Part shown: piece after piece, positions 2,983-39,486 of the stretch
How positions within the stretch are numbered: the first letter of the stretch is position 1
Layout of the letters: every line of letters starts with the position of its first letter
The notes under the pieces: generated by a model
Databases searched by the model: none
What the model was told of the DNA's origin: nothing
The model's input: only the letters and a program-made list of their open reading frames with translations
Position numbers and translations under genes: made by a program
Assembly (NCBI GenBank): GCA_013204605.1
Contig: JABMNI010000029.1
Location: 3,069 to 67,068, forward strand
Reading direction: 5' to 3'
DNA length: 64,000 nucleotides
DNA from: Ignavibacteria bacterium
GTDB lineage: Bacteria; Bacteroidota; Ignavibacteria; Kapaibacteriales; Kapaibacteriaceae

Positions 2983-3501
2983 TTAGCGAATGTGGTACAT
3001 GAGCTGCAATTGCGGCAATGGAAGCACAGTTGGAGCATTATCGCCAAGGAAAAAAGTGAACGGTAATTCTCCCGCTATCGATACATTTGGTAAGAAATAC
3101 CATTCGTATCCCAATCCAATTCCAAAACGGCTGGGACCATTCAATGTATTCTGATTAAATGATCCACCATTGTAATAGTACGAAACGCCACCCACTACAT
3201 AAAACTTCTCTATTTCAGAGTGAGACAGCGCATATTGCGCCTCAAAGCCTATGTTCCAAATTGGTTTACCCGTCGAAAAATAGAACATTGTTGTCTCAAG
3301 CGCCAATCCGAAATCCATTGTGTACCGAACCGAAACTCCCGATCCGGTGGCAAGACCAAGTTGGGCCCCTACAGCGAATTGGTTTTGTTTCTTAATATTT
3401 GCCTGCGTGCTATCTTGTTCAGCTAAGGCAGAAATTGATAAAAGCGCGAAAATACTGAATACAGCAAGTGTTTTTCTGATTGATGTGATTATTGACTTCA
3501 T
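2983..3501 (-). CDS. Small outer-membrane beta-barrel-like protein
   Basis: Signal peptide, alternating amphipathic strands (GAQLGLATGSGVSVRY, GIGLGYEWYF), aromatic C-terminal strand QLMYHIR. Confidence 0.55.
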   Translation of the reverse strand: MKSIITSIRKTLAVFSIFALLSISALAEQDSTQANIKKQNQFAVGAQLGLATGSGVSVRYTMDFGLALETTMFYFSTGKPIWNIGFEAQYALSHSEIEKFYVVGGVSYYYNGGSFNQNTLNGPSRFGIGLGYEWYFLPNVSIAGELPFTFFLGDNAPTVLPLPQLQLMYHIR

Positions 3502-10651: not shown

Positions 10652-12628
10652 ATGCCAAAACCACAAAGCCCGTTGCCAATAAATTTTGACCGTGTGGGCT
10701 ATAAACCATCTAAAGAATTTGCAAAGCAAGCTCACATAGGTAGCGCGTCGGAACTCGTCAAAATAAATTCCGCTGCTGCGAAGAACATCGAAAAGTTTTG
10801 GGCTGCTCAGGCTGACACTTTGGTATGGCAGAAACCATATCGTGAAATTTTGCGGTGGAAACATCCGAGAGCCGAGTGGTTTGTGGGTGGCAAATTGAAT
10901 GTCTCTGAAAATTGCCTTGACGTGCATTTGCAAACGTGGAGAAAAAATAAGGCGGCAATAATTTGGGAATCGGAGGACGGAAATGTTAGAACGCTTACGT
11001 ATCAGCAGTTACACTCAGAAGTTTGTAAGGCTGCGAATGCGTTAAAGGGGCTAGGTGTTAAACCGAATGATGTGGTTGCTATTTATATGGGGATGGTGCC
11101 CGAGGCCATTATTGCAATGCAGGCGTGTGCGCGCATTGGAGCTATTCACAACGTGGTATTTGGTGGGTTCAGTTCGGAGGCGTTGCGAGAAAGAATTAAT
11201 GATTCTAAAGCAACTGTTTTGATTACCCAAGATGGTGCGTTGCGCCGGAACGAGATTTTACCACTGAAAAAAACTGCCGATGAAGCTATTAAAAAGTGCC
11301 CGAGCATTCAGCACGTACTTGTAGTTCAACGCACGGGCTTGCCAACTTCATTGGCGAGGGGTAGAGACATCTGGTGGCACGAGGCACTAGCTGCAGCTTC
11401 AACTGAATGCGCCCCCACTTCTTTGCCTAGCGAACATCCACTTTTCATTTTGTACACCAGCGGTTCTACTGGCAAACCAAAGGGAATCTTGCATACAAGT
11501 GCGGGATACATAACGCAAGTGAAATACACTACGAATGTAGTGTTCGATATGAAGGACACCGACGTGTATTTCTGCACGGCCGATGTTGGCTGGATTACCG
11601 GACACTCGTACGTTGCATACGGTCCGCTTGCCTGCGGGGCAACGATACTCTTGTACGAAGGCGGCCCTATGTGCCCAACGCCGGGACGTTTTTGGGAGCT
11701 CATTGACAAGCATAGGGTCACAATTTTCTATACCGCTCCCACGGCCATCCGTGCATTTATGAAGGCCGGCGATTCGTGGCCGCTGCGGCATAAGCTCGAC
11801 TCGTTGCGATTGCTTGGAACGGTAGGCGAACCCATTAACCCAGAGGCCTGGCGCTGGTACCATTCGCTAATTGGCCGAGAACGTTGTCCGATAGTTGATA
11901 CCTGGTGGCAAACTGAAACAGGTTCCATCATGATTTCGCCTATTCCCGGAGCCACCACCACCTTCCCGGGTACAGCCACAAAGCCCCTTCCCGGATTAAT
12001 GATTGATGTTGTTAGAAAAGATGGTTCGAGCTGTAAGGTTGGCGAAGGGGGCTTATTGGTTATCAAGCATCCTTGGCCGTCCATGGCGCGAACTATTTTT
12101 GGCGACTTTTCGAGATACGTGAAAACGTACTGGTCGGAATTTCCTAAAACAAAGGATTGCAGCGGCTGGTACTTTACCGGCGATGGCGCAAAAAAAGATA
12201 AACTTGGAAACATCTGGATAATAGGTAGGGTTGATGATGTTGTTAATGTGAGCGGTCACCGGCTAGGAACGGCGGAAATTGAAAGTGCGTTAGTGGGGCA
12301 TAAAACAGTGGCAGAGGCGGCCGTGGTGGCGCGTCGGGACGACATAAAAGGCAACGTCCTTGTGGCCTTCGTTACCCTCCGCAACACCTCCAAAAAATTG
12401 GATTTGAAAAAGCTGCAAAAAGAGTTAAAGGATCATGTGGGCGAAGAAATTGGACGTTTTGCCGCGCCTAATGAGATACGATTTGCCGAGGCGCTACCAA
12501 AAACGCGAAGTGGGAAAATTATGCGTCGGTTGCTCCGAGAAATTGTTTCGGGGAACACTATTACAGGCGATACCTCCACCTTAGAAGATTTCTCGGTGTT
12601 GGAGCATTTGAGGTTCGATGAAGAGTAA
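10652..12628 (+). CDS. acs: Acetyl-CoA synthetase
   Basis: [56 protein letters not shown]. Confidence 0.97.
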
Positions 12629-12706
12629 GTGATTTTCAGAATGAGAGATTTTCAGTATGGGTGATATGCGGTAATAATACGTACTCCTACCGCTCAGAAC
12701 TCATCC

Positions 12707-12714
12707 TATTTTTG
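12707..12714 (+). promoter_or_regulatory. Bacteroidota-type -7 promoter box
   Basis: TATTTTTG in the intergenic region ~90 nt upstream of ATG 12802. Confidence 0.35.
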
Positions 12715-12801
12715 CCGTTATAAGTCGATTAGCCGACAAAAAAATATATAGTGGGAACGGCAAGTTGTCATTTCGGCATTTCAGATAACAGGCATAGATA
12801 T

Positions 12802-13533
12802 ATGAAAAAGCTTATTGTACTTCTCCTTCTCTGGGTTTTGATTTATGGCGTGGCGTGCGAAAAAAAGGCGCAAGAGCCGGCAAGCTCGCCGGGTGTTTCG
12901 ACCGGGTTAATTATCGATACGGTAGTTACAAGTGATGACAGCACCAAGCCAAATCCTAGCACGATGTTCGCCGATGTTGTGGCTACAGGAGATACCAGAA
13001 GTCTTCCTAGCGGTTCTGCCTCGGCCGTAGATACGACCATGGGCAAAGGAGGCTTGCCAGATTTTACTGATGACGGTCTTTCATGGTTTATCTCTAACGG
13101 CGGAGCTCCAAATTCGGGAATCGTGACCAATTGCGTAATTCCGCGCTTAAACCAATTTTTTGCTGATGCTGCAAACTGGCCGGGAACGTGGTTCACATTT
13201 ACTGCGCCAGATATCAGTGTTCCTATAGGTCCGCAATGCATAACTGGAACCTATGTTGATTGGAACGTGACAACTAACCAGAGGTTTGCATGGAAATGCA
13301 CTTCGCCTAGTGTAAATGCGGATGTGATTAATGTACTCACGCAGTATAGTGCGGCTCTTGTTACGCAACCGGCAGCCCCTTTCCAACTAATAATTCAAAA
13401 TCTTGATTTTGGAAGTATGAACTATGCTCCGTACGTGGGCGTAGTGCTAACCAAGTATATGCATACGGATGGCACTTCCTACTTATGGATGGTAAACCTG
13501 ACTAGAAATCCGCCTGGTCCAATTTGTCCGTAG
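12802..13533 (+). CDS. Hypothetical lipoprotein, paralogue 1 of an unrecognised GGLPDFTDDGLSW family
   Basis: ATG 12802 gives a signal peptide with lipobox GVA-C, then a Ser/Thr/Pro-rich linker and a ~155-aa domain colinear with the next ORF. Confidence 0.75.
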   Translation: MKKLIVLLLLWVLIYGVACEKKAQEPASSPGVSTGLIIDTVVTSDDSTKPNPSTMFADVVATGDTRSLPSGSASAVDTTMGKGGLPDFTDDGLSWFISNGGAPNSGIVTNCVIPRLNQFFADAANWPGTWFTFTAPDISVPIGPQCITGTYVDWNVTTNQRFAWKCTSPSVNADVINVLTQYSAALVTQPAAPFQLIIQNLDFGSMNYAPYVGVVLTKYMHTDGTSYLWMVNLTRNPPGPICP

Positions 13534-13621
13534 TAATACTGAGTTTGAATAATTATCAAGGACTTGAACTTGTAAATGAAAAATTAGTGGTTAGCTTTTA
13601 GATTCACATCGAGGGGAGACC

Positions 13622-14290
13622 ATGAGAAGTTTACTACAATTTAGAGTATTGACGTTGATAGTTTTGGGCGTTTTATTCGTGCCTTTGTATGCGCAAGGTC
13701 AGGATGAAACGGCGGTCACCTATTCCACCACAACAGAGGTGATATCGAATTCAGAGATCTTGTCTGGTGAGTCAGCTCGCGTACAAGCGAGGGTACAAAT
13801 TGAAAACAATATTCCGCCGCAGATGTTCACGGGAGGGTTGCCAGACTTTACGGATGATGGGCTTTCTTGGTTGGTATCACGTGCAGGAAGAGCCGCTCCG
13901 GTGTACGTATCAACCTGCGTAAAAAACTATTTCAATCAGTTCTACGCAACGCTAACAGGTGCCCCTACTTCGGGAACGTTCAGGGCATGTAGTCCAACGG
14001 GCGACATCGCGCAGGCCTGCGATTTGGGTACAGTAATGGAATGGTCTATGACAGCCAATCAAAAAGTGGCTTGGAACGCTACTCCAACAGCGGTCAGACT
14101 TCAGTTTGCTGCTGCTTTAGTGAGCTATAAAACAGCATTAAGTGTTTCAGGAGCAGCTTGGTTTCCATTCATCGTGAAGGGACTGGATTACTCAGGTACT
14201 GAAACAGCACCATATACGAGTGTTGATATAGTTGCTGTTACAACCACAGCCGCTGGAACTTACGAATGGATAGTTACTCTTACTAGGTAA
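13622..14290 (+). CDS. Hypothetical secreted protein, paralogue 2 of the same family
   Basis: GAGGGGAG before the ATG, Sec signal (PLYA-Q), identical 13-aa motif and colinear conserved residues with 12802..13533. Confidence 0.8.
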   Translation: MRSLLQFRVLTLIVLGVLFVPLYAQGQDETAVTYSTTTEVISNSEILSGESARVQARVQIENNIPPQMFTGGLPDFTDDGLSWLVSRAGRAAPVYVSTCVKNYFNQFYATLTGAPTSGTFRACSPTGDIAQACDLGTVMEWSMTANQKVAWNATPTAVRLQFAAALVSYKTALSVSGAAWFPFIVKGLDYSGTETAPYTSVDIVAVTTTAAGTYEWIVTLTR

Positions 14291-14318
14291 CTCAAGTAAT
14301 AAATCTGGGCAGTAAATC

Positions 14319-14384
14319 AACTCCCGTTATGTCTCATTGGCTTATGTTTGTAGGTCAAATCAAGATAGACGGGAGTTCTTTTTT
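14319..14384 (+). terminator. Long-loop hairpin plus T tract ending the paralogue pair
   Basis: AACTCCCGT (14319-27) pairs with ACGGGAGTT (14369-77), followed by CTTTTTT. Confidence 0.5.
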
Positions 14385-14427
14385 ACCGTCCACTATTCTC
14401 ATGTTTCTCATTTCGCGCTAACTACTC

Positions 14428-16923
14428 ATGCAAAAAGCTGTGATCATGGCGGGTGGTTTTGGAACTCGGCTTCGACCTCTCACAATGAGTATTCCAAAAC
14501 CGATGGTACCGCTGGCGAATAGGCCAATGATGGGACATATCGTTCAGCTTTTAAAAAAGCACGGAATTACCCGAATGGTTTCTGTGCTGTACTTTCAACC
14601 TGAAAGCATTACTTCCTACTTTGGCGATGGTGCCAAAATGGGAGTGCAAATGGAGTACATTACCGCCGAGGCAGACTTTGGAACCGCAGGTAGTGTTAAA
14701 AATGCCGAGTCGTTATTGCAAGAACCGTTCATCGTTATTTCCGGCGATGTACTAACTGATTTCGACATCACAGCGGCAATAAATTTCCACAAAGCCAAGG
14801 GCGCAATGGCCACCATCGTGTTAACACGAGTGCCGCAGCCACTTCAGTATGGCATTGTGATGACTGATTCTGAAGACAGAATAACTCGCTTCCTCGAAAA
14901 ACCCTCCTGGGGCGAAGTTTTTAGTGATACAATCAACACCGGAATCTACATTCTCGAACCTAGCGTCTTAGATTTGATTCCACCTAAAACAGATTTTGAC
15001 TTTAGTAAAGACCTCTTCCCGTTAATGCTTAGTAAGGGTCTTCCGCTTTTTGGGTATACCGCAACCGGTTACTGGAAAGACATAGGGAACCTGCAAGAGT
15101 ATCAACTCGCACACAGCGACGTTTTGAGTGGTAAAGTAAAAGTTGATTTACCAGGTGAGCCCTGCGACTCTGCTGTATGTGGTTCCAACCTCGACCTAGC
15201 GCCCTCGGCTCACTTAGAGGGAATGGTGGTCTTCGGCGACAACGTGAAAGTTGGTAAAGGGGCTTTCTTGAAGGACTGCATTGTTGGTAGTAATTCAGTA
15301 ATTGGTGAGAATGCTGCGTTGACAGATTCGGTGCTATGGGATCACGTTAAAATTGGCGCGAATGTCAAAGTCACTAATGCTGTCCTTTGCAATGGTGTTC
15401 GAATTAGTGACGGAGCTGAAATTGCAAGCAATGTATTTATTGCTGAAGACTGTGTAATTGGTAGCAAAGCAAGAGTATATAAAAATGTAAAATTGTGGCC
15501 GCGTAAAGTTGTAGAATCGGAGGCAGTTGTGACTCGAAGTTTAGTGCAAGAAGAACGTTGGGCACGGGATTTATTTACCGATGCACGGATTACCGGTATT
15601 TCTAATATCGATATGAATCCGGAATTCGGTGCGAAAATAGGGTCGGCCCTCGGCATGAGTTTAGGCGCGGGTACACAATTGGTAGCAAGCCGCGATGACG
15701 ATGCGACTTCACGAATTATGAAGCGTTCGATAACTTCAGGTTTGATGAGCGTTGGTGTTAACGTAACAGATCTTCAAACAACATCAATTCCACAAACCCG
15801 ACAAGAGATGAACACCGGAAAGTATGTAGCCGGATTCCATGTAAGAAAATCACCACGGCATAAAGATCAAACCGATATTATACTTTTTGGTAAGGATGGA
15901 AGAGATTTCGCGCTATCAGCAACAAAAGCAGTAGAGCGTTATTTTTACGGCGAGGACATTAAGCGTGTTCAATATGACAAGGTTGGACGTCTTGAATTCC
16001 CCGAACGACCCATTGGAGCGTACGTGGAGCGATTTTTGAAATCGCTTGATGTAGACACAATTAGAAGTAGTCAGTACAAGATTCTTGTTGATTATTCATT
16101 TGGTCTTGCTTCGACAGTTTTCCCACAAATTTTGGGCGAACTCAAGTGTAAGGTTCTGGGCATGAATAATTATGTCGACGTAGCCCATTATGCAGATGAA
16201 CTTAGTGAAGTACTGGATGAATCGGCTTCTATTATGAGGTCGCTTGGTTACGAAATTGGCTTTAAAATTGATCCAGGTGTCGAGAAGATTGCCTTAGTTG
16301 ATGAAAGGGGTATTTGGTATACCTCGCTTAGATTGTTGAGTATTGTAACAAAAATGTTTTTGGAAGCCAATACGCAGCATGAGCCATACGCTATTGCAGT
16401 GCCAGTTCACGCCACTCAGGAAATTGATTTGATAGCTGCGGACTATAACGTTCAAGTTGTGCGCATTAAAAATTCGCATTCGGCAATGATGGAGGCTACC
16501 AAGGATGAGAACGTGAAGTTTGTTGGTGGTACTCGTGGCGGCTTCATCTTCCCTGAATTTTTAAGGGCGTCCGATGGAATGTTTAGCGCTTGTAAGATTA
16601 TAGAAATGATTTCACAAACTGGTTGCCAGTTATCGGAACTCGACCGCACACTACCCAAAAGGCATCAGTTTTCTGTTCTTGTGGATTGTCCGTGGGAGGC
16701 CAAAGGCACGGTGATGCGCAGGGCCATGGAGTTTTCAGAAGATAAAGAACGTATGTTGGTAGACGGAGTAAAGATATTTATCGATTCGGCTTCGGTGCTC
16801 CTCGTTCCGGATAAGGAGCAAGCCGTTTTTGCGGTCACCGCCGAGGCGGACACTGCCGAAAAAGCACTTGAAATAAAAGACACGTATGCAGAATTAGTTG
16901 CGCAGTGGCGCAGCGGAAATTGA
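14428..16923 (+). CDS. Mannose-1-phosphate guanylyltransferase / phosphomannomutase-like fusion
   Basis: NTP-transferase N-terminus (AGGFGTRLRPLT...KPM, FLEKP, YWKDIG), hexapeptide LbH repeats, then alpha-D-phosphohexomutase domains (LFTDARITG, DYSFG, GFIFPEF...DGM). Confidence 0.88.
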   Translation: MQKAVIMAGGFGTRLRPLTMSIPKPMVPLANRPMMGHIVQLLKKHGITRMVSVLYFQPESITSYFGDGAKMGVQMEYITAEADFGTAGSVKNAESLLQEPFIVISGDVLTDFDITAAINFHKAKGAMATIVLTRVPQPLQYGIVMTDSEDRITRFLEKPSWGEVFSDTINTGIYILEPSVLDLIPPKTDFDFSKDLFPLMLSKGLPLFGYTATGYWKDIGNLQEYQLAHSDVLSGKVKVDLPGEPCDSAVCGSNLDLAPSAHLEGMVVFGDNVKVGKGAFLKDCIVGSNSVIGENAALTDSVLWDHVKIGANVKVTNAVLCNGVRISDGAEIASNVFIAEDCVIGSKARVYKNVKLWPRKVVESEAVVTRSLVQEERWARDLFTDARITGISNIDMNPEFGAKIGSALGMSLGAGTQLVASRDDDATSRIMKRSITSGLMSVGVNVTDLQTTSIPQTRQEMNTGKYVAGFHVRKSPRHKDQTDIILFGKDGRDFALSATKAVERYFYGEDIKRVQYDKVGRLEFPERPIGAYVERFLKSLDVDTIRSSQYKILVDYSFGLASTVFPQILGELKCKVLGMNNYVDVAHYADELSEVLDESASIMRSLGYEIGFKIDPGVEKIALVDERGIWYTSLRLLSIVTKMFLEANTQHEPYAIAVPVHATQEIDLIAADYNVQVVRIKNSHSAMMEATKDENVKFVGGTRGGFIFPEFLRASDGMFSACKIIEMISQTGCQLSELDRTLPKRHQFSVLVDCPWEAKGTVMRRAMEFSEDKERMLVDGVKIFIDSASVLLVPDKEQAVFAVTAEADTAEKALEIKDTYAELVAQWRSGN

Positions 16924-34284: not shown

Positions 34285-34452
34285 AATAAACCCGAGAAGT
34301 AGTTGACATTTAGAAAGTTTTCAAATTATGCAAGCGGGAGTGAATATTTATCGTTTTTATTCAATTTGGTCTCCGTATATTTAAATACGCATTTGCCTGT
34401 AACTCCGCAGGCACACAGCGGTTATTCACGTAACCACAAAACACAGGATCTC

Positions 34453-37400
34453 ATGCGCGTTTTGAGCTACGCTTTTTACGGATTGCTATTATTCTTGCTG
34501 AGTAACGCTGCCAGCGCGCAGTTCCCAGCAGCATGTGATGCCCGCAAAGACTGCATTTATAATGCAATCTCTTTCACTGCGAATTCCGGGAATAAGGCGC
34601 ACTTCGTTGAGATACAGGGTGCACCCGTGGCACCTCTGCAAAAAGCATTGACAGTGGAAATGTGGGTTAAAACTGAACGCCAAGCAGGCATGAAGCAATT
34701 TTTGGCGGGTCTGTGGGGTCCAAACTCCGATGCCAACGACGTTTTCGCCTTCTACATCGATCAGAGTGACAGGTTGTGTTTTGAAGTAAATCCAGACAAT
34801 TCTGTTTTGAAGGGGGCTGATAACACGATTGTATTAGCACCGGCTTCTTTCATTTATGGTAAATGGGTGCACCTCGCTGCGGTGTTTGATGGAAGTACCT
34901 CTAGTGTGTCCATATATATTGATGGTCAGTTGGTTGGCGGACCCGTTTCTAACCCCGCCTATCCCGTGAGTTACCTTAAGCCCCTTGACAAATCAAGCCT
35001 TTCCACCTTGATTGGTAGCACGAATGGTTTGTCTGATAGCGGTAGTGTTTTTCGCACGTTTCGCGGAATGATGGATGAAGTTCGAATTTGGAATGTAGCG
35101 TTAACCGCCACGCAGATATTATGTCAGAAAGATTTGTCGTTGAATGGAAACGAGGCCGGATTGCGCGTGTACTACCGTTGCAACGAAGCCGTGGGTAACA
35201 AGAACATCATGTGCGATGCAACCGGGAAAGGGTACTCCGGACTCATGCGATCTGAAATTTCGAACCAAAAATCGGACAGGGTAGCACCGCGGTCAATGAC
35301 GGTTACGCCTGGAGTTATTACGGATGAGATTCAATGCGATAGCGTGAAGTCGTGGTCGTTTATTGTTACCGACACTATGCCGTGTGGTAACTCGGCAACT
35401 TTTAGAATGCTTGGTCCAGAAGCCGGCTTGTTTACGGTTACTCCTACTACAGTAAATCTCACACCGGGGCAATCGTTTTCTATAACGGTAACGTACCGCG
35501 GTACAATTGTTGGTGGTTTTTTAGAAACGTTGCAAATCCTACCTGTTAACAGATGCGGCCTGCCGAACACGTTGATAAAACTCAACCTTAACCGCACAAC
35601 CGAAGTAGGAATATCGCGCAATAAAATTGTATTCGACACGCTGTATGTTGGTTGCAAGGAATATTCGAGCATCGATTCGACGTTAGTAATATGTAATACC
35701 TCCGACAAGATTGGTAAACCTCGCACCGTTACCATTAATGACATTCGTAGCAACAACCCGTTGGGATTCAGAGCTGTTAATTTGACGTTCCCATTTCAAC
35801 TCACATCGGGTCAGTGCACAACCATAGTAATTCGAAGTTTTGTTCGCGACACCACGAATGACTATCTCGACACGCTTCGAATTTATTCCGATGATCAGTG
35901 CCAGAATGCGCCTACAATTGTGGCACTTACCGGACGCACTCAAGAAGTAATTTCAATACGAAGCTCAAGTGGAGCAGCTAGAGTTGACACGTTTAATTTT
36001 CAACCTACGTGCCCCGGACAATTAAGCTCGTCGCAGTATTACACGTGGCAGAACCTCACGTTGACACCGTTGATTATTGAAGACATCGTTGTCCCACCAG
36101 CATTCACACACTACAAAATATCGTTGCCATTCACCATGCAACCTAAAACTGGTTACCAGCCAATCGCGGTTCGGTTTAGGCCATTGCAGCCGGGCGCCGT
36201 TTTTGACAGCATTGTTATCAAAACTCGAATTCAAGGCTGCACCATTGAACGTAAAATTTATTTGCGCGGCAGGGGGCTTGACAATAAGGTTGACTGGGCC
36301 GTGAAAGATTTGGTCGATTTCGGAAACGTAATTGTGGGTCAGCAAAGCACGATTAATGTAATTGCTAAAAATAATTCCAATAACGATCAGTTAAACGTCG
36401 CACTATATGTGGAGAATGGCGATGCGTTTACTCTCTTAGCAGGTACCGGACGAAGCATCCGCCCTCGTGATTCTGTTTCAATACCGGTTACGTTCCGGCC
36501 TATTGATTCTTTGACGTACAATGACAAATTGTGTCTGTTCGAAACTCGCTGCTATACGGTAGCATGTATTCCGCTACGCGGAAAGGGCATCTTGCAAACG
36601 TTTAGATTCTCTCCGCTTGTAATGGAAACCGAGAATGTTATTGCCTGCGGGAATCGCGATGACACTGTTTATATCGTGAATATTACGCCAGGTGATCAAA
36701 CCATAACAAATTTGAATTTTATAAATCCGAGTGGGAAATTTTCAGTGGTCGATCCTCCGTTGCCGTGGAGTTCAACCTCTATAAAGGCCGGCGACTCAGC
36801 CCGTTTTATCGTTAATTACAATCCGAATGATGTCACCCAGGATCGCGCCGACCGAGCATTTATAGCCTTTAAGGGTCCTAACAGTAAGGATTGGCAGGTA
36901 CAATTAATTGGTACTTCGGCCACACCTAAACTGTTTGTTACACAAAACACTTTTTACGGTACGGTTGAGGCCGGTGATATTCGGACGGCGAGGTTGATCG
37001 TGGAAAACACTTCTTCGATGCCGGTGATAGTTGATAGCATAACGGTGGGAAATGGCTTTGTTATTACAAACATCAGTAGGACACTGCCAGATATGCTCAT
37101 GCCGCGAGATACTATTGGTGTGACTGTTGAATTTCGTCCAACAGCTTCGGTTGTATACGATGCAGAGTTAACTGCGTATTCAAGTAGTCCATGCAGCATT
37201 AAGGGTGTAGGAAAGTTGAACGGCAGAGGAATAATCGTAGAACTTGAGAGTGCATTGAGTTTGGTAAACTTTGGGTACCTACGTCCGTGTGAATGCCAAG
37301 TGCGAACAATCGAAATGCTGAATGCTTCATTGGTGTTCGACATGACGGTCGACTCTATTTGGGTTGATTCGGCTGGAGTTCCGGGCGGAAAACCGCAGTT

Positions 37401-39486
37401 CTATTCTTGGACTTCGAAGTATTCTCCAACTGGAATGCTCCCTTACAAAATTCCTCCTGGGGAACGAGATACCGTCTACATTAAATTCTGTCCTAACACC
37501 CCGGCTGATCCTGCACAAGCCGAAGTGCGCGCAAAACTACACGTGAAGGCCAAAGGCTCGCAGTGGAGCAAGGCGCTTGAAACGTATTTGTTTGGTAAAC
37601 GCTCGCTAACGTTCAGACCAACTCCGGCCTTAGTTCAATTTGCACCGGGTGTGATTGATGTGATTAGTCCAACGCCCCAGTTTGTGACGTTGAAAATTCC
37701 AGGGTATCAACTGAATCCGACTCAAGACACTGTAGTTATCGACTCACTGGGATTCGAACTCGATGAGCGAGTGTTTTTTGTGATCAATCCCACAGTGTTT
37801 CCAATTATCATCAAGCCAGGAGATTCAGTAAGAATTGAAATTAGACAGCGTCCACGCGCCCCTCGAAATTATCAAGCCCGACTTGTAATTTATTACAGTA
37901 AACCATGCGCCGGACGCGACACCACGGTTTTAGTTAAAGGTGCAGGCTTTGCGCTTCCGCGTGGACTAGCTTTTTCTTTCGACCCTGCTCGTGTTCTTCC
38001 TGATACGTTTGGAATGGTTTCGTGCGACACGCTAATCGTTCCGCTTTACTCTTCCATCTACATCGATGCCTCGGTAGTGGATGTGTTTATGCGAGTAGAT
38101 TTTGATTCTACTCAGTTACGACTGTTAGATATTCAATCCGACATTCTAAACAACTCGTGTGTTTCCAAAACCGGCGGGATAAAATTCACACCGTCTATTT
38201 TTTCGGAGCCTTCGCTATACGGTGGCCTGAAAGTAACGTTAAAGAATTTTTGTGGAATCGATTCTATCGGGTCGTTCTGTGTTATGAGGTTTGTAACCGT
38301 CGCAAACAACAGAGTCGATAGTAGACTTACAGTTGATAGTATTGATTTCGATACTGAAGATGTGATTCTGTATAAGCTAATTGCAACCGGCGACAAGGGC
38401 CGCGTGCTTGCTTACAAGTCCGAAATCACCTATGCAGGTCCGGTAGCCTATGATAGCGTTCGAATTCTTGACTGTGCAGACAAAACGCTAACAATCATTA
38501 ATACTGGCGACATCGGAAACACGGTCGACAATCTTTTAGATCTTCCTATATACACGTCAATTGTAAGCTCGGTGCCAGCAATGGGCGATAGCATCCGACC
38601 CGGTGATTCAGCAATTGTAACAATTCGTTTTTGCCCACGAGCCGAACGTGGAATAGACACTTCGGTAATTGCAGTAAGTCTTAGACCGTGCGAAACCCGC
38701 GATACAACAGTTGTCACCGGATATGGCTATGCTCCTGAATTGGATGTTTCTGTCGCCGCCAGAAAAGTATTTTGGGTTCCTGATACGTTAGGCGGAGCCA
38801 TCGGCGATACCATCGAGATTCCAATTATGCTTGAAAAGGATGTGTCGGCCTTCTATAACAACCAAACGTATTGGTTGAATGGATTGAATTTCGATGTTGA
38901 TGTAAAGTTCAATCCGCGAGCCCTGAAGTTTATTAGCATTCCGTTTATGGCGAAGCCATCCCAAACAAGTTTGACCTCCTCAGTGCCGGGTAACGTTTCG
39001 ATAGCGGTTGTAGGAGCAGACAGCGTTCAGTCGGGACCATTTGTTAAGCTTCGATTTGCTGTTACGGTTCCGGACGTTGACAGTATGAACATTGAAGTAT
39101 CAGGAAGGGGCTATGTGTCTGATTCGCTCCAATTCCTCGACATCGTTCCGGTGGATGTTTCAACACCATTTGTTACATCTGGCAAATGCGATATTTCGGT
39201 TCTGAAATTCAGTACGACTGGTGCTCCACGAATAGAAATTACTCCTAACCCGGTTGTGGGAGATGCAACAATTACGTTCCGAATTCAAGAAACAGTTCCC
39301 GTGCACCTAACATTATGCAACTCAACGGGTGTTGCAATTCGCGAATTTTTAAACGGCTCAATCACGCTAACAGGTGGCGAGTATGCCGTACGATTTACAA
39401 CAGCGGAAATTCCAGCTGGTGTATATTTTGTCCGCATAAACGGTGGCGTGTTTGCCTCAACGGCGCAACTAGTCATTGTTAAATGA
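34453..39486 (+). CDS. Giant T9SS-type surface protein: LamG + multiple ASH/choice-of-anchor-D Ig domains + cohesin-like modules + CTD
   Basis: ATG 34453 gives a signal peptide. LamG (TVEMWVK, WVHLAAVFDG, IYIDG, GMMDEVRIWN), repeated DFG.V..G / I.N / V.F.P units, CTD TPNPVVGDATITF...GVYFVRI. Confidence 0.8.
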   Translation: MRVLSYAFYGLLLFLLSNAASAQFPAACDARKDCIYNAISFTANSGNKAHFVEIQGAPVAPLQKALTVEMWVKTERQAGMKQFLAGLWGPNSDANDVFAFYIDQSDRLCFEVNPDNSVLKGADNTIVLAPASFIYGKWVHLAAVFDGSTSSVSIYIDGQLVGGPVSNPAYPVSYLKPLDKSSLSTLIGSTNGLSDSGSVFRTFRGMMDEVRIWNVALTATQILCQKDLSLNGNEAGLRVYYRCNEAVGNKNIMCDATGKGYSGLMRSEISNQKSDRVAPRSMTVTPGVITDEIQCDSVKSWSFIVTDTMPCGNSATFRMLGPEAGLFTVTPTTVNLTPGQSFSITVTYRGTIVGGFLETLQILPVNRCGLPNTLIKLNLNRTTEVGISRNKIVFDTLYVGCKEYSSIDSTLVICNTSDKIGKPRTVTINDIRSNNPLGFRAVNLTFPFQLTSGQCTTIVIRSFVRDTTNDYLDTLRIYSDDQCQNAPTIVALTGRTQEVISIRSSSGAARVDTFNFQPTCPGQLSSSQYYTWQNLTLTPLIIEDIVVPPAFTHYKISLPFTMQPKTGYQPIAVRFRPLQPGAVFDSIVIKTRIQGCTIERKIYLRGRGLDNKVDWAVKDLVDFGNVIVGQQSTINVIAKNNSNNDQLNVALYVENGDAFTLLAGTGRSIRPRDSVSIPVTFRPIDSLTYNDKLCLFETRCYTVACIPLRGKGILQTFRFSPLVMETENVIACGNRDDTVYIVNITPGDQTITNLNFINPSGKFSVVDPPLPWSSTSIKAGDSARFIVNYNPNDVTQDRADRAFIAFKGPNSKDWQVQLIGTSATPKLFVTQNTFYGTVEAGDIRTARLIVENTSSMPVIVDSITVGNGFVITNISRTLPDMLMPRDTIGVTVEFRPTASVVYDAELTAYSSSPCSIKGVGKLNGRGIIVELESALSLVNFGYLRPCECQVRTIEMLNASLVFDMTVDSIWVDSAGVPGGKPQFYSWTSKYSPTGMLPYKIPPGERDTVYIKFCPNTPADPAQAEVRAKLHVKAKGSQWSKALETYLFGKRSLTFRPTPALVQFAPGVIDVISPTPQFVTLKIPGYQLNPTQDTVVIDSLGFELDERVFFVINPTVFPIIIKPGDSVRIEIRQRPRAPRNYQARLVIYYSKPCAGRDTTVLVKGAGFALPRGLAFSFDPARVLPDTFGMVSCDTLIVPLYSSIYIDASVVDVFMRVDFDSTQLRLLDIQSDILNNSCVSKTGGIKFTPSIFSEPSLYGGLKVTLKNFCGIDSIGSFCVMRFVTVANNRVDSRLTVDSIDFDTEDVILYKLIATGDKGRVLAYKSEITYAGPVAYDSVRILDCADKTLTIINTGDIGNTVDNLLDLPIYTSIVSSVPAMGDSIRPGDSAIVTIRFCPRAERGIDTSVIAVSLRPCETRDTTVVTGYGYAPELDVSVAARKVFWVPDTLGGAIGDTIEIPIMLEKDVSAFYNNQTYWLNGLNFDVDVKFNPRALKFISIPFMAKPSQTSLTSSVPGNVSIAVVGADSVQSGPFVKLRFAVTVPDVDSMNIEVSGRGYVSDSLQFLDIVPVDVSTPFVTSGKCDISVLKFSTTGAPRIEITPNPVVGDATITFRIQETVPVHLTLCNSTGVAIREFLNGSITLTGGEYAVRFTTAEIPAGVYFVRINGGVFASTAQLVIVK

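Follow-up and report, generated by a model that had tools for sequence, protein, structure and literature searches.

LpoB, the outer-membrane lipoprotein of Escherichia coli that activates PBP1b (PF13036), joins a lipid anchor to a small alpha/beta domain through a long disordered linker and binds without catalysis. In RcsF, the enterobacterial sensor lipoprotein (PF16358), a disordered linker carries a small disulfide-stabilised domain that works through protein contacts. The present analysis concerns two adjacent open reading frames (ORFs), ORF A (12802–13533, + strand, 243 aa) and ORF B (13622–14290, + strand, 222 aa), in a 64,000-nt stretch of DNA (the window; positions 3,069 to 67,068 of contig JABMNI010000029.1, assembly GCA_013204605.1) from an uncultured freshwater Kapaibacteria genome. 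ORF A resembles LpoB in that a lipobox is followed by ~65 aa of disordered linker and then by a domain of 155 aa. This likeness is one of architecture only; there is no Pfam match and no Foldseek match in the PDB, and linkers of the family range from 10 to ~120 aa, so that spanning of the periplasm would not be a constant requirement. With RcsF it has in common the lipoprotein nature, the disordered linker and a disulfide-stabilised domain (predicted in the family), but sequence and fold do not match, and the family has a domain of twice the size, with only a single predicted disulfide conserved throughout.

Two broader classes also invite comparison. The linkers of the family are flexible, non-cytoplasmic, sequon-rich regions, as in the O-glycoproteins of Bacteroidota; however, the latter are a post-translational class and not a protein family, glycosylation is here a prediction from sequons, and ORF B has none. 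Lineage-restricted orphan families are likewise small, secreted, confined to one clade, found in metagenome assemblies only and annotated as ‘hypothetical protein’. What sets the present family apart is a confident fold model, a slot that is fixed in the chromosome, a duplication that is dated, and the recurrence of an anchored-plus-free pairing.

ORF A and ORF B belong to a real, narrowly distributed new protein family with no known family or fold match in the libraries searched. The explanation favoured here, held with about as much doubt as confidence, is that the family is a tethered, probably glycosylated, disulfide-stabilised, non-enzymatic binding module, of which A and B are the anchored and the soluble partner. 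If the model is right, it presents a compact disulfide-stabilised alpha+beta fold without a PDB counterpart, limited to an uncultured class of Bacteroidota. Tethered or secreted lineage-restricted proteins are common among uncultured metagenome-derived bacteria, and as a kind this one is not new; it has no bearing on a long-standing question and would strike a specialist as neat rather than startling. Its comparative context (the slot, the dated duplication and two independent pairings), which few orphans have, makes the family experimentally approachable. It also offers a clean natural test of O-glycosylation sequon use on lipoprotein tethers outside the cultured Bacteroidota orders. The weight of the finding would grow if the fold proved new against AFDB, or if a link to neighbouring NTPases in sister lineages defined a trans-envelope system.

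A narrowly distributed family in a fixed genomic slot

Membership of a known family was judged by curated cut-off or by E < 1e-3. Pfam-A gave 0 matches to ORF A and ORF B at E ≤ 10, and a Pfam scan of 26 family members taken singly gave a best E of 0.065. The best NCBIfam score was 13.6 bits against a cut-off of 40, PADLOC held no match to the A/B family, and the family profile reached a best E of 1.1 against all PDB sequences. PHROGs returned one match only, phrog_34502 (function not assigned, E 0.0029), which was rejected as noise, as were JUQZ_fam_ocin (NCBIfam, E 0.063), PqqA and others. The initial annotation, made from the sequence by eye, had recognised no family for either protein; these searches, together with the Foldseek comparisons given below, bear this out.

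An exhaustive hidden Markov model (HMM) search of 1.84 billion cluster representatives recovered 26 proteins of 110–295 aa at E ≤ 1e-3. Where a source name is given it is ‘hypothetical protein’, and Pfam domains are absent throughout. ORF A itself scored 230 bits. Applied to loci fetched via a neighbouring gene, the HMM found the family in eight of those loci, and no third copy was detected by HMM in the 64-kb window. Two other searches were less productive: a peptide-pattern scan of 185,579 species genomes, based on a four-sequence alignment, gave no match, its patterns being too strict, and a word-index search, in which signal-peptide words overwhelmed the query built on the full-length 26-sequence alignment, yielded only four members, the domain-only alignment performing better. 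A Cys at the same position after a hydrophobic region is present in ~36 of 49 family members.

Loci were gathered via the adjoining gene for an 831-aa GMP-transferase/phosphomannomutase (GMP/PMM; window 14428–16923), which is ~70% identical to its counterparts in the nearest species-representative metagenome-assembled genomes (MAGs) and 83% identical to those in two Logan contigs, and which places the organism in the Kapaibacteria. The family is confined to one clade of this group (Bacteroidota in the GTDB sense), and the block conserved across the clade reads FemAB-like, GT1, EamA, isochorismatase, acs, the slot, GMP/PMM, PTS-EIIA, HisRS, histidine kinase and FtsW. Every family member with visible context sits in the slot between acs and GMP/PMM, which holds 0, 1 or 2 copies across ~45 syntenic loci. 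Two copies are present in the window and in L001/L002, and one copy in L003, L005, L006, L008, L015, L023, L083–L089 and L092. In L004, L024, L090 and L091 one or two copies follow 1–3 genes for AAA_16-TPR NTPases. At ~20 loci the slot is empty and acs abuts GMP/PMM. In the window, the pair had been placed between acs and a GMP-transferase; the Pfam domains of the syntenic orthologues agree, with acs upstream and an NTP_transferase-PGM/PMM fusion downstream.

On the GMP/PMM host tree, presence of the family requires 3 changes as against ~13 in label shuffles, and 0 of 500 shuffles were as low. The clades of the host tree recur in the family tree, and the pair has the same GC content as the window. 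Because presence is clustered on the host tree and the family tree is congruent with it, the family is ancestral to the clade, has been vertically inherited and was lost a few times. Horizontal transfer or a mobile island was rejected given the equal GC content, the congruent trees and the clustered presence.

ORF A (P0001) and ORF B (P0002) align end to end in BLASTP (32% identity over 232 columns, E 2e-32). Within the conserved domain of 157–158 aa (ORF A residues 78–235, 13033–13506, + strand; ORF B residues 65–222, 13814–14287, + strand) identity is 38.9%, whereas the first 60–80 residues past the signals have no meaningful similarity. A colinear ~155-aa domain common to both proteins, with strong divergence elsewhere, had been proposed and is what the alignments give. 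In the family tree, ORF A and its orthologue (P0001, P0004), the latter in a syntenic Logan contig, are sister to ORF B and its orthologue (P0002, P0003), with support of 95/89; the two orthologues form a pair in the same synteny. The window pair thus stems from a tandem duplication in the ancestor shared with the L001 organism, after which one copy lost its lipobox Cys.

A second pairing is found elsewhere in the family. L004 and L090 carry two copies each, placed in different deep clades, and the non-lipidated clade among them (P0024, P0036–P0038) is unrelated to P0002/P0003. Since the two non-lipidated clades are unrelated, the combination of an anchored and a non-lipidated copy arose twice. 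In both clades, each non-lipidated copy adjoins a lipoprotein paralogue.

The ratio of nonsynonymous to synonymous substitution rates (dN/dS) was taken between close relatives (L003/L005/L083 and L086/L015), synonymous sites being saturated between the window and its nearest relative. It is 0.08–0.15 for the family and 0.014–0.028 for GMP/PMM, a difference of ~6 times, and branches of the family tree are ~4–5 times as long as in the host gene. Both ORFs are real genes, constrained but by comparison quick to evolve. The purifying selection first claimed from the codons of one short motif is seen across the family, in dN/dS values of this order.

The conserved domain and its tether

The first AlphaFold2 (AF2) model, for which four sequences and the full-length ORF A protein were used, was mediocre (predicted local distance difference test, pLDDT, 65), and its Foldseek matches (PTS IIA, GH11 and others; E ≥ 0.26, template modelling (TM) score ~0.1) were noise. 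With a 20-sequence domain alignment, the ORF B domain was modelled with a pLDDT of 89 and a predicted TM score (pTM) of 0.84. The model has five helices and five strands in the order H-H-E-H-E-H-H-E-E-E, and the first, low-depth model of ORF A has the same element order at an offset of 76 residues. Foldseek searches with the confident ORF B model gave a best E of 1.9 with TM ≤ 0.27 against the PDB and a best E of 1.6 against BFVD.

Both domains carry the same motif, GGLPDFTDDGLSW, at 13048–13086 in ORF A and at 13832–13870 in ORF B (both + strand). Its codons read GGA GGC TTG CCA GAT TTT ACT GAT GAC GGT CTT TCA TGG in ORF A and GGA GGG TTG CCA GAC TTT ACG GAT GAT GGG CTT TCT TGG in ORF B. Reading the codons confirms that the 13 differ at six third positions, all synonymous, as had been stated; these six differences rule out recent gene conversion as the source of the identical peptide. 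The orthologues read GGMPDFTDDGLSW and GNMPDFTDDGLSM, and PDFTDDGLS is identical in the four closest sequences. The motif had been called invariant, which holds for the two paralogues, but distant members keep only the core P[DE]F[TS]D. The consensus drawn from 26–37 members reads P-[DE]-F-[TS]-D-x-G-[VL], with the second Asp (D90 in ORF A) alone invariant; the deepest clades read VVFGDTEV, IDLTDA and LTFSDQ at this position.

In the AF2 model, helix 1 begins exactly at the invariant Asp, within a block of pLDDT 96. Under standard helix-capping rules, the motif places Phe at N', Thr or Ser at the N-cap, Asp at N1 and Leu or Val at N4. The P-D-F-T-D core would thus cap helix 1 at its N-terminus and act as its hydrophobic staple. 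As the first ordered element after the tether, it would be a determinant of the fold or of an interface, not a catalytic, metal or Gly-Gly site.

The remaining invariant or near-invariant residues of the family (C111, C146, W154, Q160, W164, T167 and L201, in addition to D90) have a structural look. They include two Trp, the Cys pair, and Thr or Gln where helices 4 and 5 begin. Two conserved Cys had been noted in the pair, and these (C111/C146 in ORF A, C99/C133 in ORF B) turn out to be nearly invariant family-wide; judging from conservation and secondary structure, C111 and C146 may form a disulfide, which would fit an extracytoplasmic location. Because every conserved residue looks structural (the Cys pair, the Trp core and the helix caps), the domain is read as a putative non-enzymatic binding or scaffold module.

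ORF A and its orthologue (L001:7272-7967) carry two further Cys, which in ORF A are Cys166 (WKC, 13297–13299) and Cys242 (PICP, 13525–13527). The second lies in a C-terminal tail, NPPGPICP (13507–13530, + strand; GAPGPICP in P0004). The extra Cys pair and the tail, (N/G)(P/A)PGPICP, occur in neither the soluble paralogue nor any other family member. Cys166 and Cys242 probably form a second disulfide, stapling this lineage-specific tail.

The linker of ORF A (12859–13047, + strand) is variable, ~65 aa long and predicted to be disordered (residues 20–85; pLDDT < 50 at 16–28 and 34–85), and carries the sequons DTV, DST and DTT. Between the lipid Cys and the motif, family members have anywhere from ~10 to ~120 residues. 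Conservation in these linkers is limited to islands formed by D-(S/T)-hydrophobic triplets, such as IDTS/VDTT ~10 residues before PDFTD and IPDS(I/V) further upstream. The general O-glycosylation system of Bacteroidota, which targets non-cytoplasmic proteins, has the triplet D-(S/T)-(A/I/L/V/M/T) as its sequon, and almost every family in the phylum is enriched in this triplet (PMC8550257, PMC12871550). The linkers of 32 non-redundant lipoprotein members contain 48 sequons as against 10.2 ± 3.0 after shuffling, an approximately five-fold enrichment that 0 of 1000 residue shuffles reached, and the globular domains hold almost none. At the sequence level, ORF A thus has the sequon signature of a Bacteroidota O-glycoprotein. 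Since the sequon is enriched about five-fold and forms the only conserved islands of the linker, the linker of the anchored copy may be an O-glycosylated tether.

Among the proteins of the window, the sequon ratio is 2.05 for those with a signal-peptide-like N-terminus and 1.10 for the rest, a difference due largely to one 1727-aa ORF. This ORF (34303–39486, + strand), which has a signal-like N-terminus, contains 33 D[ST][AILMTV] sequons as against 7.6 expected from composition. It is a strong candidate for a heavily glycosylated envelope or surface protein, and its sequon load is indirect evidence that the organism uses the Bacteroidota O-glycosylation system.

Possible pairing of the two copies and alternative explanations

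Under the favoured explanation, the ancestral form would be a lipoprotein with a signal peptide and lipobox Cys, a disordered linker of 10–120 aa and a compact ~155-aa domain. The lipid would hold the domain at the envelope on a flexible, probably O-glycosylated tether. The disulfide-stabilised alpha+beta domain would work by binding a ligand or partner and not through catalysis. Lipidated copy A and free copy B may then act together as anchored and soluble partners, because the identical helix-1 face has been kept across a saturated synonymous distance and because the pair arose twice; overlap of the genes in the second-lineage pair is also counted toward this partnership. Copy B could equally act alone in a different sub-compartment. 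An anchored-plus-soluble two-component module had been proposed from the window alone. It gains from the second independent pair (L004, L090, L091), but most members are single genes, so that a two-component module would be a derived state and not the basic design of the family.

Several points weigh against this explanation. Most relatives have one copy and many have none; because relatives live with one copy or without any, the function would be dispensable or accessory and the pair need not be a complex. The idea of a heteromer draws on two lineages. The 48 linker sequons were counted in related sequences, and the shuffle test overstates their independence and significance; ORF B contains zero such sequons, and O-glycosylation in Kapaibacteria is itself a prediction from sequons. 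Secondary structure and conservation are the basis on which the disulfide, the contacts of the staple and a surface position for the motif are deduced. The sequencing runs that hold the sequence are all DNA metagenomes.

The alternative that survives best, though unlikely on the whole, is that A and B are independent: after the duplication one copy changed compartment, so that one would be anchored in the outer membrane and the other free in the periplasm or released, and each now binds its own target with no A–B complex. The prevalence of single-copy members, together with the ~20 syntenic relatives with none, would fit this, as would a domain identity of only 39% between A and B and the restriction of the C-terminal Cys tail and the sequon-rich linker to A. 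However, the 13-residue stretch is identical in A and B despite saturated synonymous divergence, and the anchored-plus-free arrangement arose again with genes that overlap and are therefore co-translated.

A role in an antagonistic interaction instead of housekeeping, either as a surface decoy or blocker against phage or as an immunity protein against a toxin acting in the periplasm, is distinctly improbable. Such a role would suit the rapid evolution of the family (branch lengths 4–5 times and dN/dS ~6 times those of the neighbouring gene) and the variation in presence, absence and copy number at a single slot. Additionally, in L004, L024 and L090 the slot holds 1–3 STAND-type AAA_16-TPR NTPases, a class common in defence systems. 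Nevertheless, dN/dS is far under 1, and inheritance is vertical and host-congruent with no sign of mobility and a GC content equal to that of the window. Beyond a generic TPR there is no PADLOC or PHROG match, and no toxin gene lies nearby. An acidic lipoprotein export signal is known from Bacteroides and Capnocytophaga; the CEKK... that follows the lipid Cys of ORF A is unlike it.

The NTPases of the slot are proteins of 866–911 aa with AAA_16 and TPR domains, are of STAND type and occur in one host clade only (L004:1957-4644; L024:2406-5045; L090:1-5998, with three tandem copies; L091:2-937). Their genes are translationally coupled to family genes, with gaps of 2–3 nt or overlaps, in all four of these loci. 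Between Walker A and Walker B these proteins conserve a hydrophobic insert, APSWIGLIPVIGAPIFHALSIVGSGY, and they match KAP_NTPase marginally, which suggests that they are membrane-associated. A wider proposal builds on this and is likewise improbable, namely that the family is a new-fold envelope module specific to Kapaibacteria, in which a glycosylated, lipid-tethered copy and a free copy form a heteromer through the PDFTD/helix-1 face; in sister lineages this periplasmic pair would be the output or sensor arm of membrane-inserted, KAP-like AAA_16-TPR NTPases of the same operon, which would amount to an undescribed trans-envelope system of signalling or defence. We would give very little credence to the related reading of the family as the periplasmic part of a trans-envelope module, with the AAA_16-TPR NTPase as its cytoplasmic or membrane partner, which in the window genome would be encoded elsewhere or lost. 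In its favour, the coupling of NTPase and family genes persists in L004, L024, L090 and L091 although the NTPases are only 43% identical, and the hydrophobic Walker A–B insert and weak KAP_NTPase match point to the membrane. Against it, the association is limited to one host clade, most family members have no NTPase neighbour, and the 64-kb window has no NTPase homologue.

The remaining alternative, that DFTDDG binds metal (in the manner of an EF-hand or DxDxDG loop) or serves in catalysis, or that the GG before it marks a processing site, as was raised in the initial annotation, is highly implausible: D-x-T-x-D-G in the four sequences closest to the window does resemble a DxDxDG loop and is their best-conserved stretch, but most family members have Ala, Val or Leu after the invariant Asp, many have lost the Gly, and AF2 shows the start of helix 1 there and not a loop. 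Because the next Asp is unconserved and the one invariant Asp, at position 4 of the window's D-F-T-D-D-G, is at a non-ligand position, a calcium site is argued against; likewise, no conserved His/Ser/Lys/Glu set or other polar constellation fit for an active site was seen among family members. The Gly-Gly is confined to the window/L001 lineage (GN in P0003), other members having TT, VS, PT or IE before the motif (TTPDFTD, VSPDFTD, RPTPDFTD and similar), and both proteins already carry ordinary Sec/signal peptidase II (SPase II) signals, unlike double-glycine-processed proteins.

Gene boundaries, signals and side observations

From ATG 12802, the N-terminus of ORF A is MKKLIVLLLLWVLIYGVAC. This ATG is the likely start because the orthologue opens likewise (MKKSFLVV...), and the alternative GTG at 12751 is unlikely. 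The signal peptide and lipobox, MKKLIVLLLLWVLIYGVA followed by C (12802–12858, + strand), predict by sequence rule a lipoprotein with Cys19 as the lipidated residue. ORF B is preceded by AGGGGAG, a Shine–Dalgarno-like box. Its predicted Sec signal peptide, MRSLLQFRVLTLIVLGVLFVPLYA followed by QGQ (13622–13693, + strand; cleavage site by rule of thumb), contains no Cys, and ORF B would therefore not be lipidated; the orthologue of ORF B likewise has no lipobox Cys. The description of the pair as one lipoprotein and one Sec-secreted protein is consistent with these signals. No C-terminal sorting domain of the type IX secretion system was found in A or B, neither of which has a Pfam match to such a domain, and both end ≤8 residues past the conserved domain.

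The pair had also been credited with a promoter box and a terminator of its own. The latter is well founded: 28 nt past the stop of ORF B, a long terminator-like hairpin, AACUCCCGUU...AGACGGGAGUU, is followed by CUUUUUU (14319–14384, + strand), with a folding free energy (dG) of -36.7 kcal/mol and a z of -6.6, and 0 of 200 shuffles were equally stable. A simple terminator scan overlooked this hairpin, the loop of which is beyond the size limit of the scan. The promoter box is not established. A sigma-70 scan at the pair gave 4 matches, as against 3.6 expected by chance, and TATTTTTG (12707–12714, + strand), ~88 nt 5′ of ORF A, is a weak candidate matched by eye to the Bacteroidota -7 consensus TAnnTTTG. 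Rfam and tRNA scans gave no match in or near the pair.

One family member, P0006 (L085:5887-6450), lacks a signal peptide within the open frame, which begins MAEIAKIPGEVE and follows acs after a gap of ~170 nt; either its start has been miscalled or its N-terminus has decayed.

The 831-aa fusion of NTP_transferase/LbH with PGM_PMM I-III next to the slot extends far beyond Kapaibacteria at 42–46% identity (~80 loci), occurring also in Rifleibacteria, Endomicrobia, Zixibacteria, Elusimicrobiota and Firestonebacteria. PTS-EIIA and HisRS come after it in Ignavibacteria and Kapaibacteria. L005, L009, L010, L012, L013, L022, L026, L028, L032 and others have Kapaibacteria synteny and a GMP/PMM that is 66–72% identical. 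These contigs, from GTDB-representative MAGs, are titled Hyphomicrobiales, Bradyrhizobiaceae, Didemnitutus, Chitinophaga pinensis, Patescibacteria or Melioribacter, titles that look like record-level taxonomic mislabels.

Near-identical, low-depth fragments of window positions 12600–14450 are present in two aquatic metagenomes of 2017, and more diverged fragments (90–97%) in a beach-sand metagenome (runs X2–X4 in all). In the covered parts, the 2017 strains differ from the window by one substitution, 14047 T>C. Since fragments of the locus are found in several metagenomes, the lineage recurs across sites.

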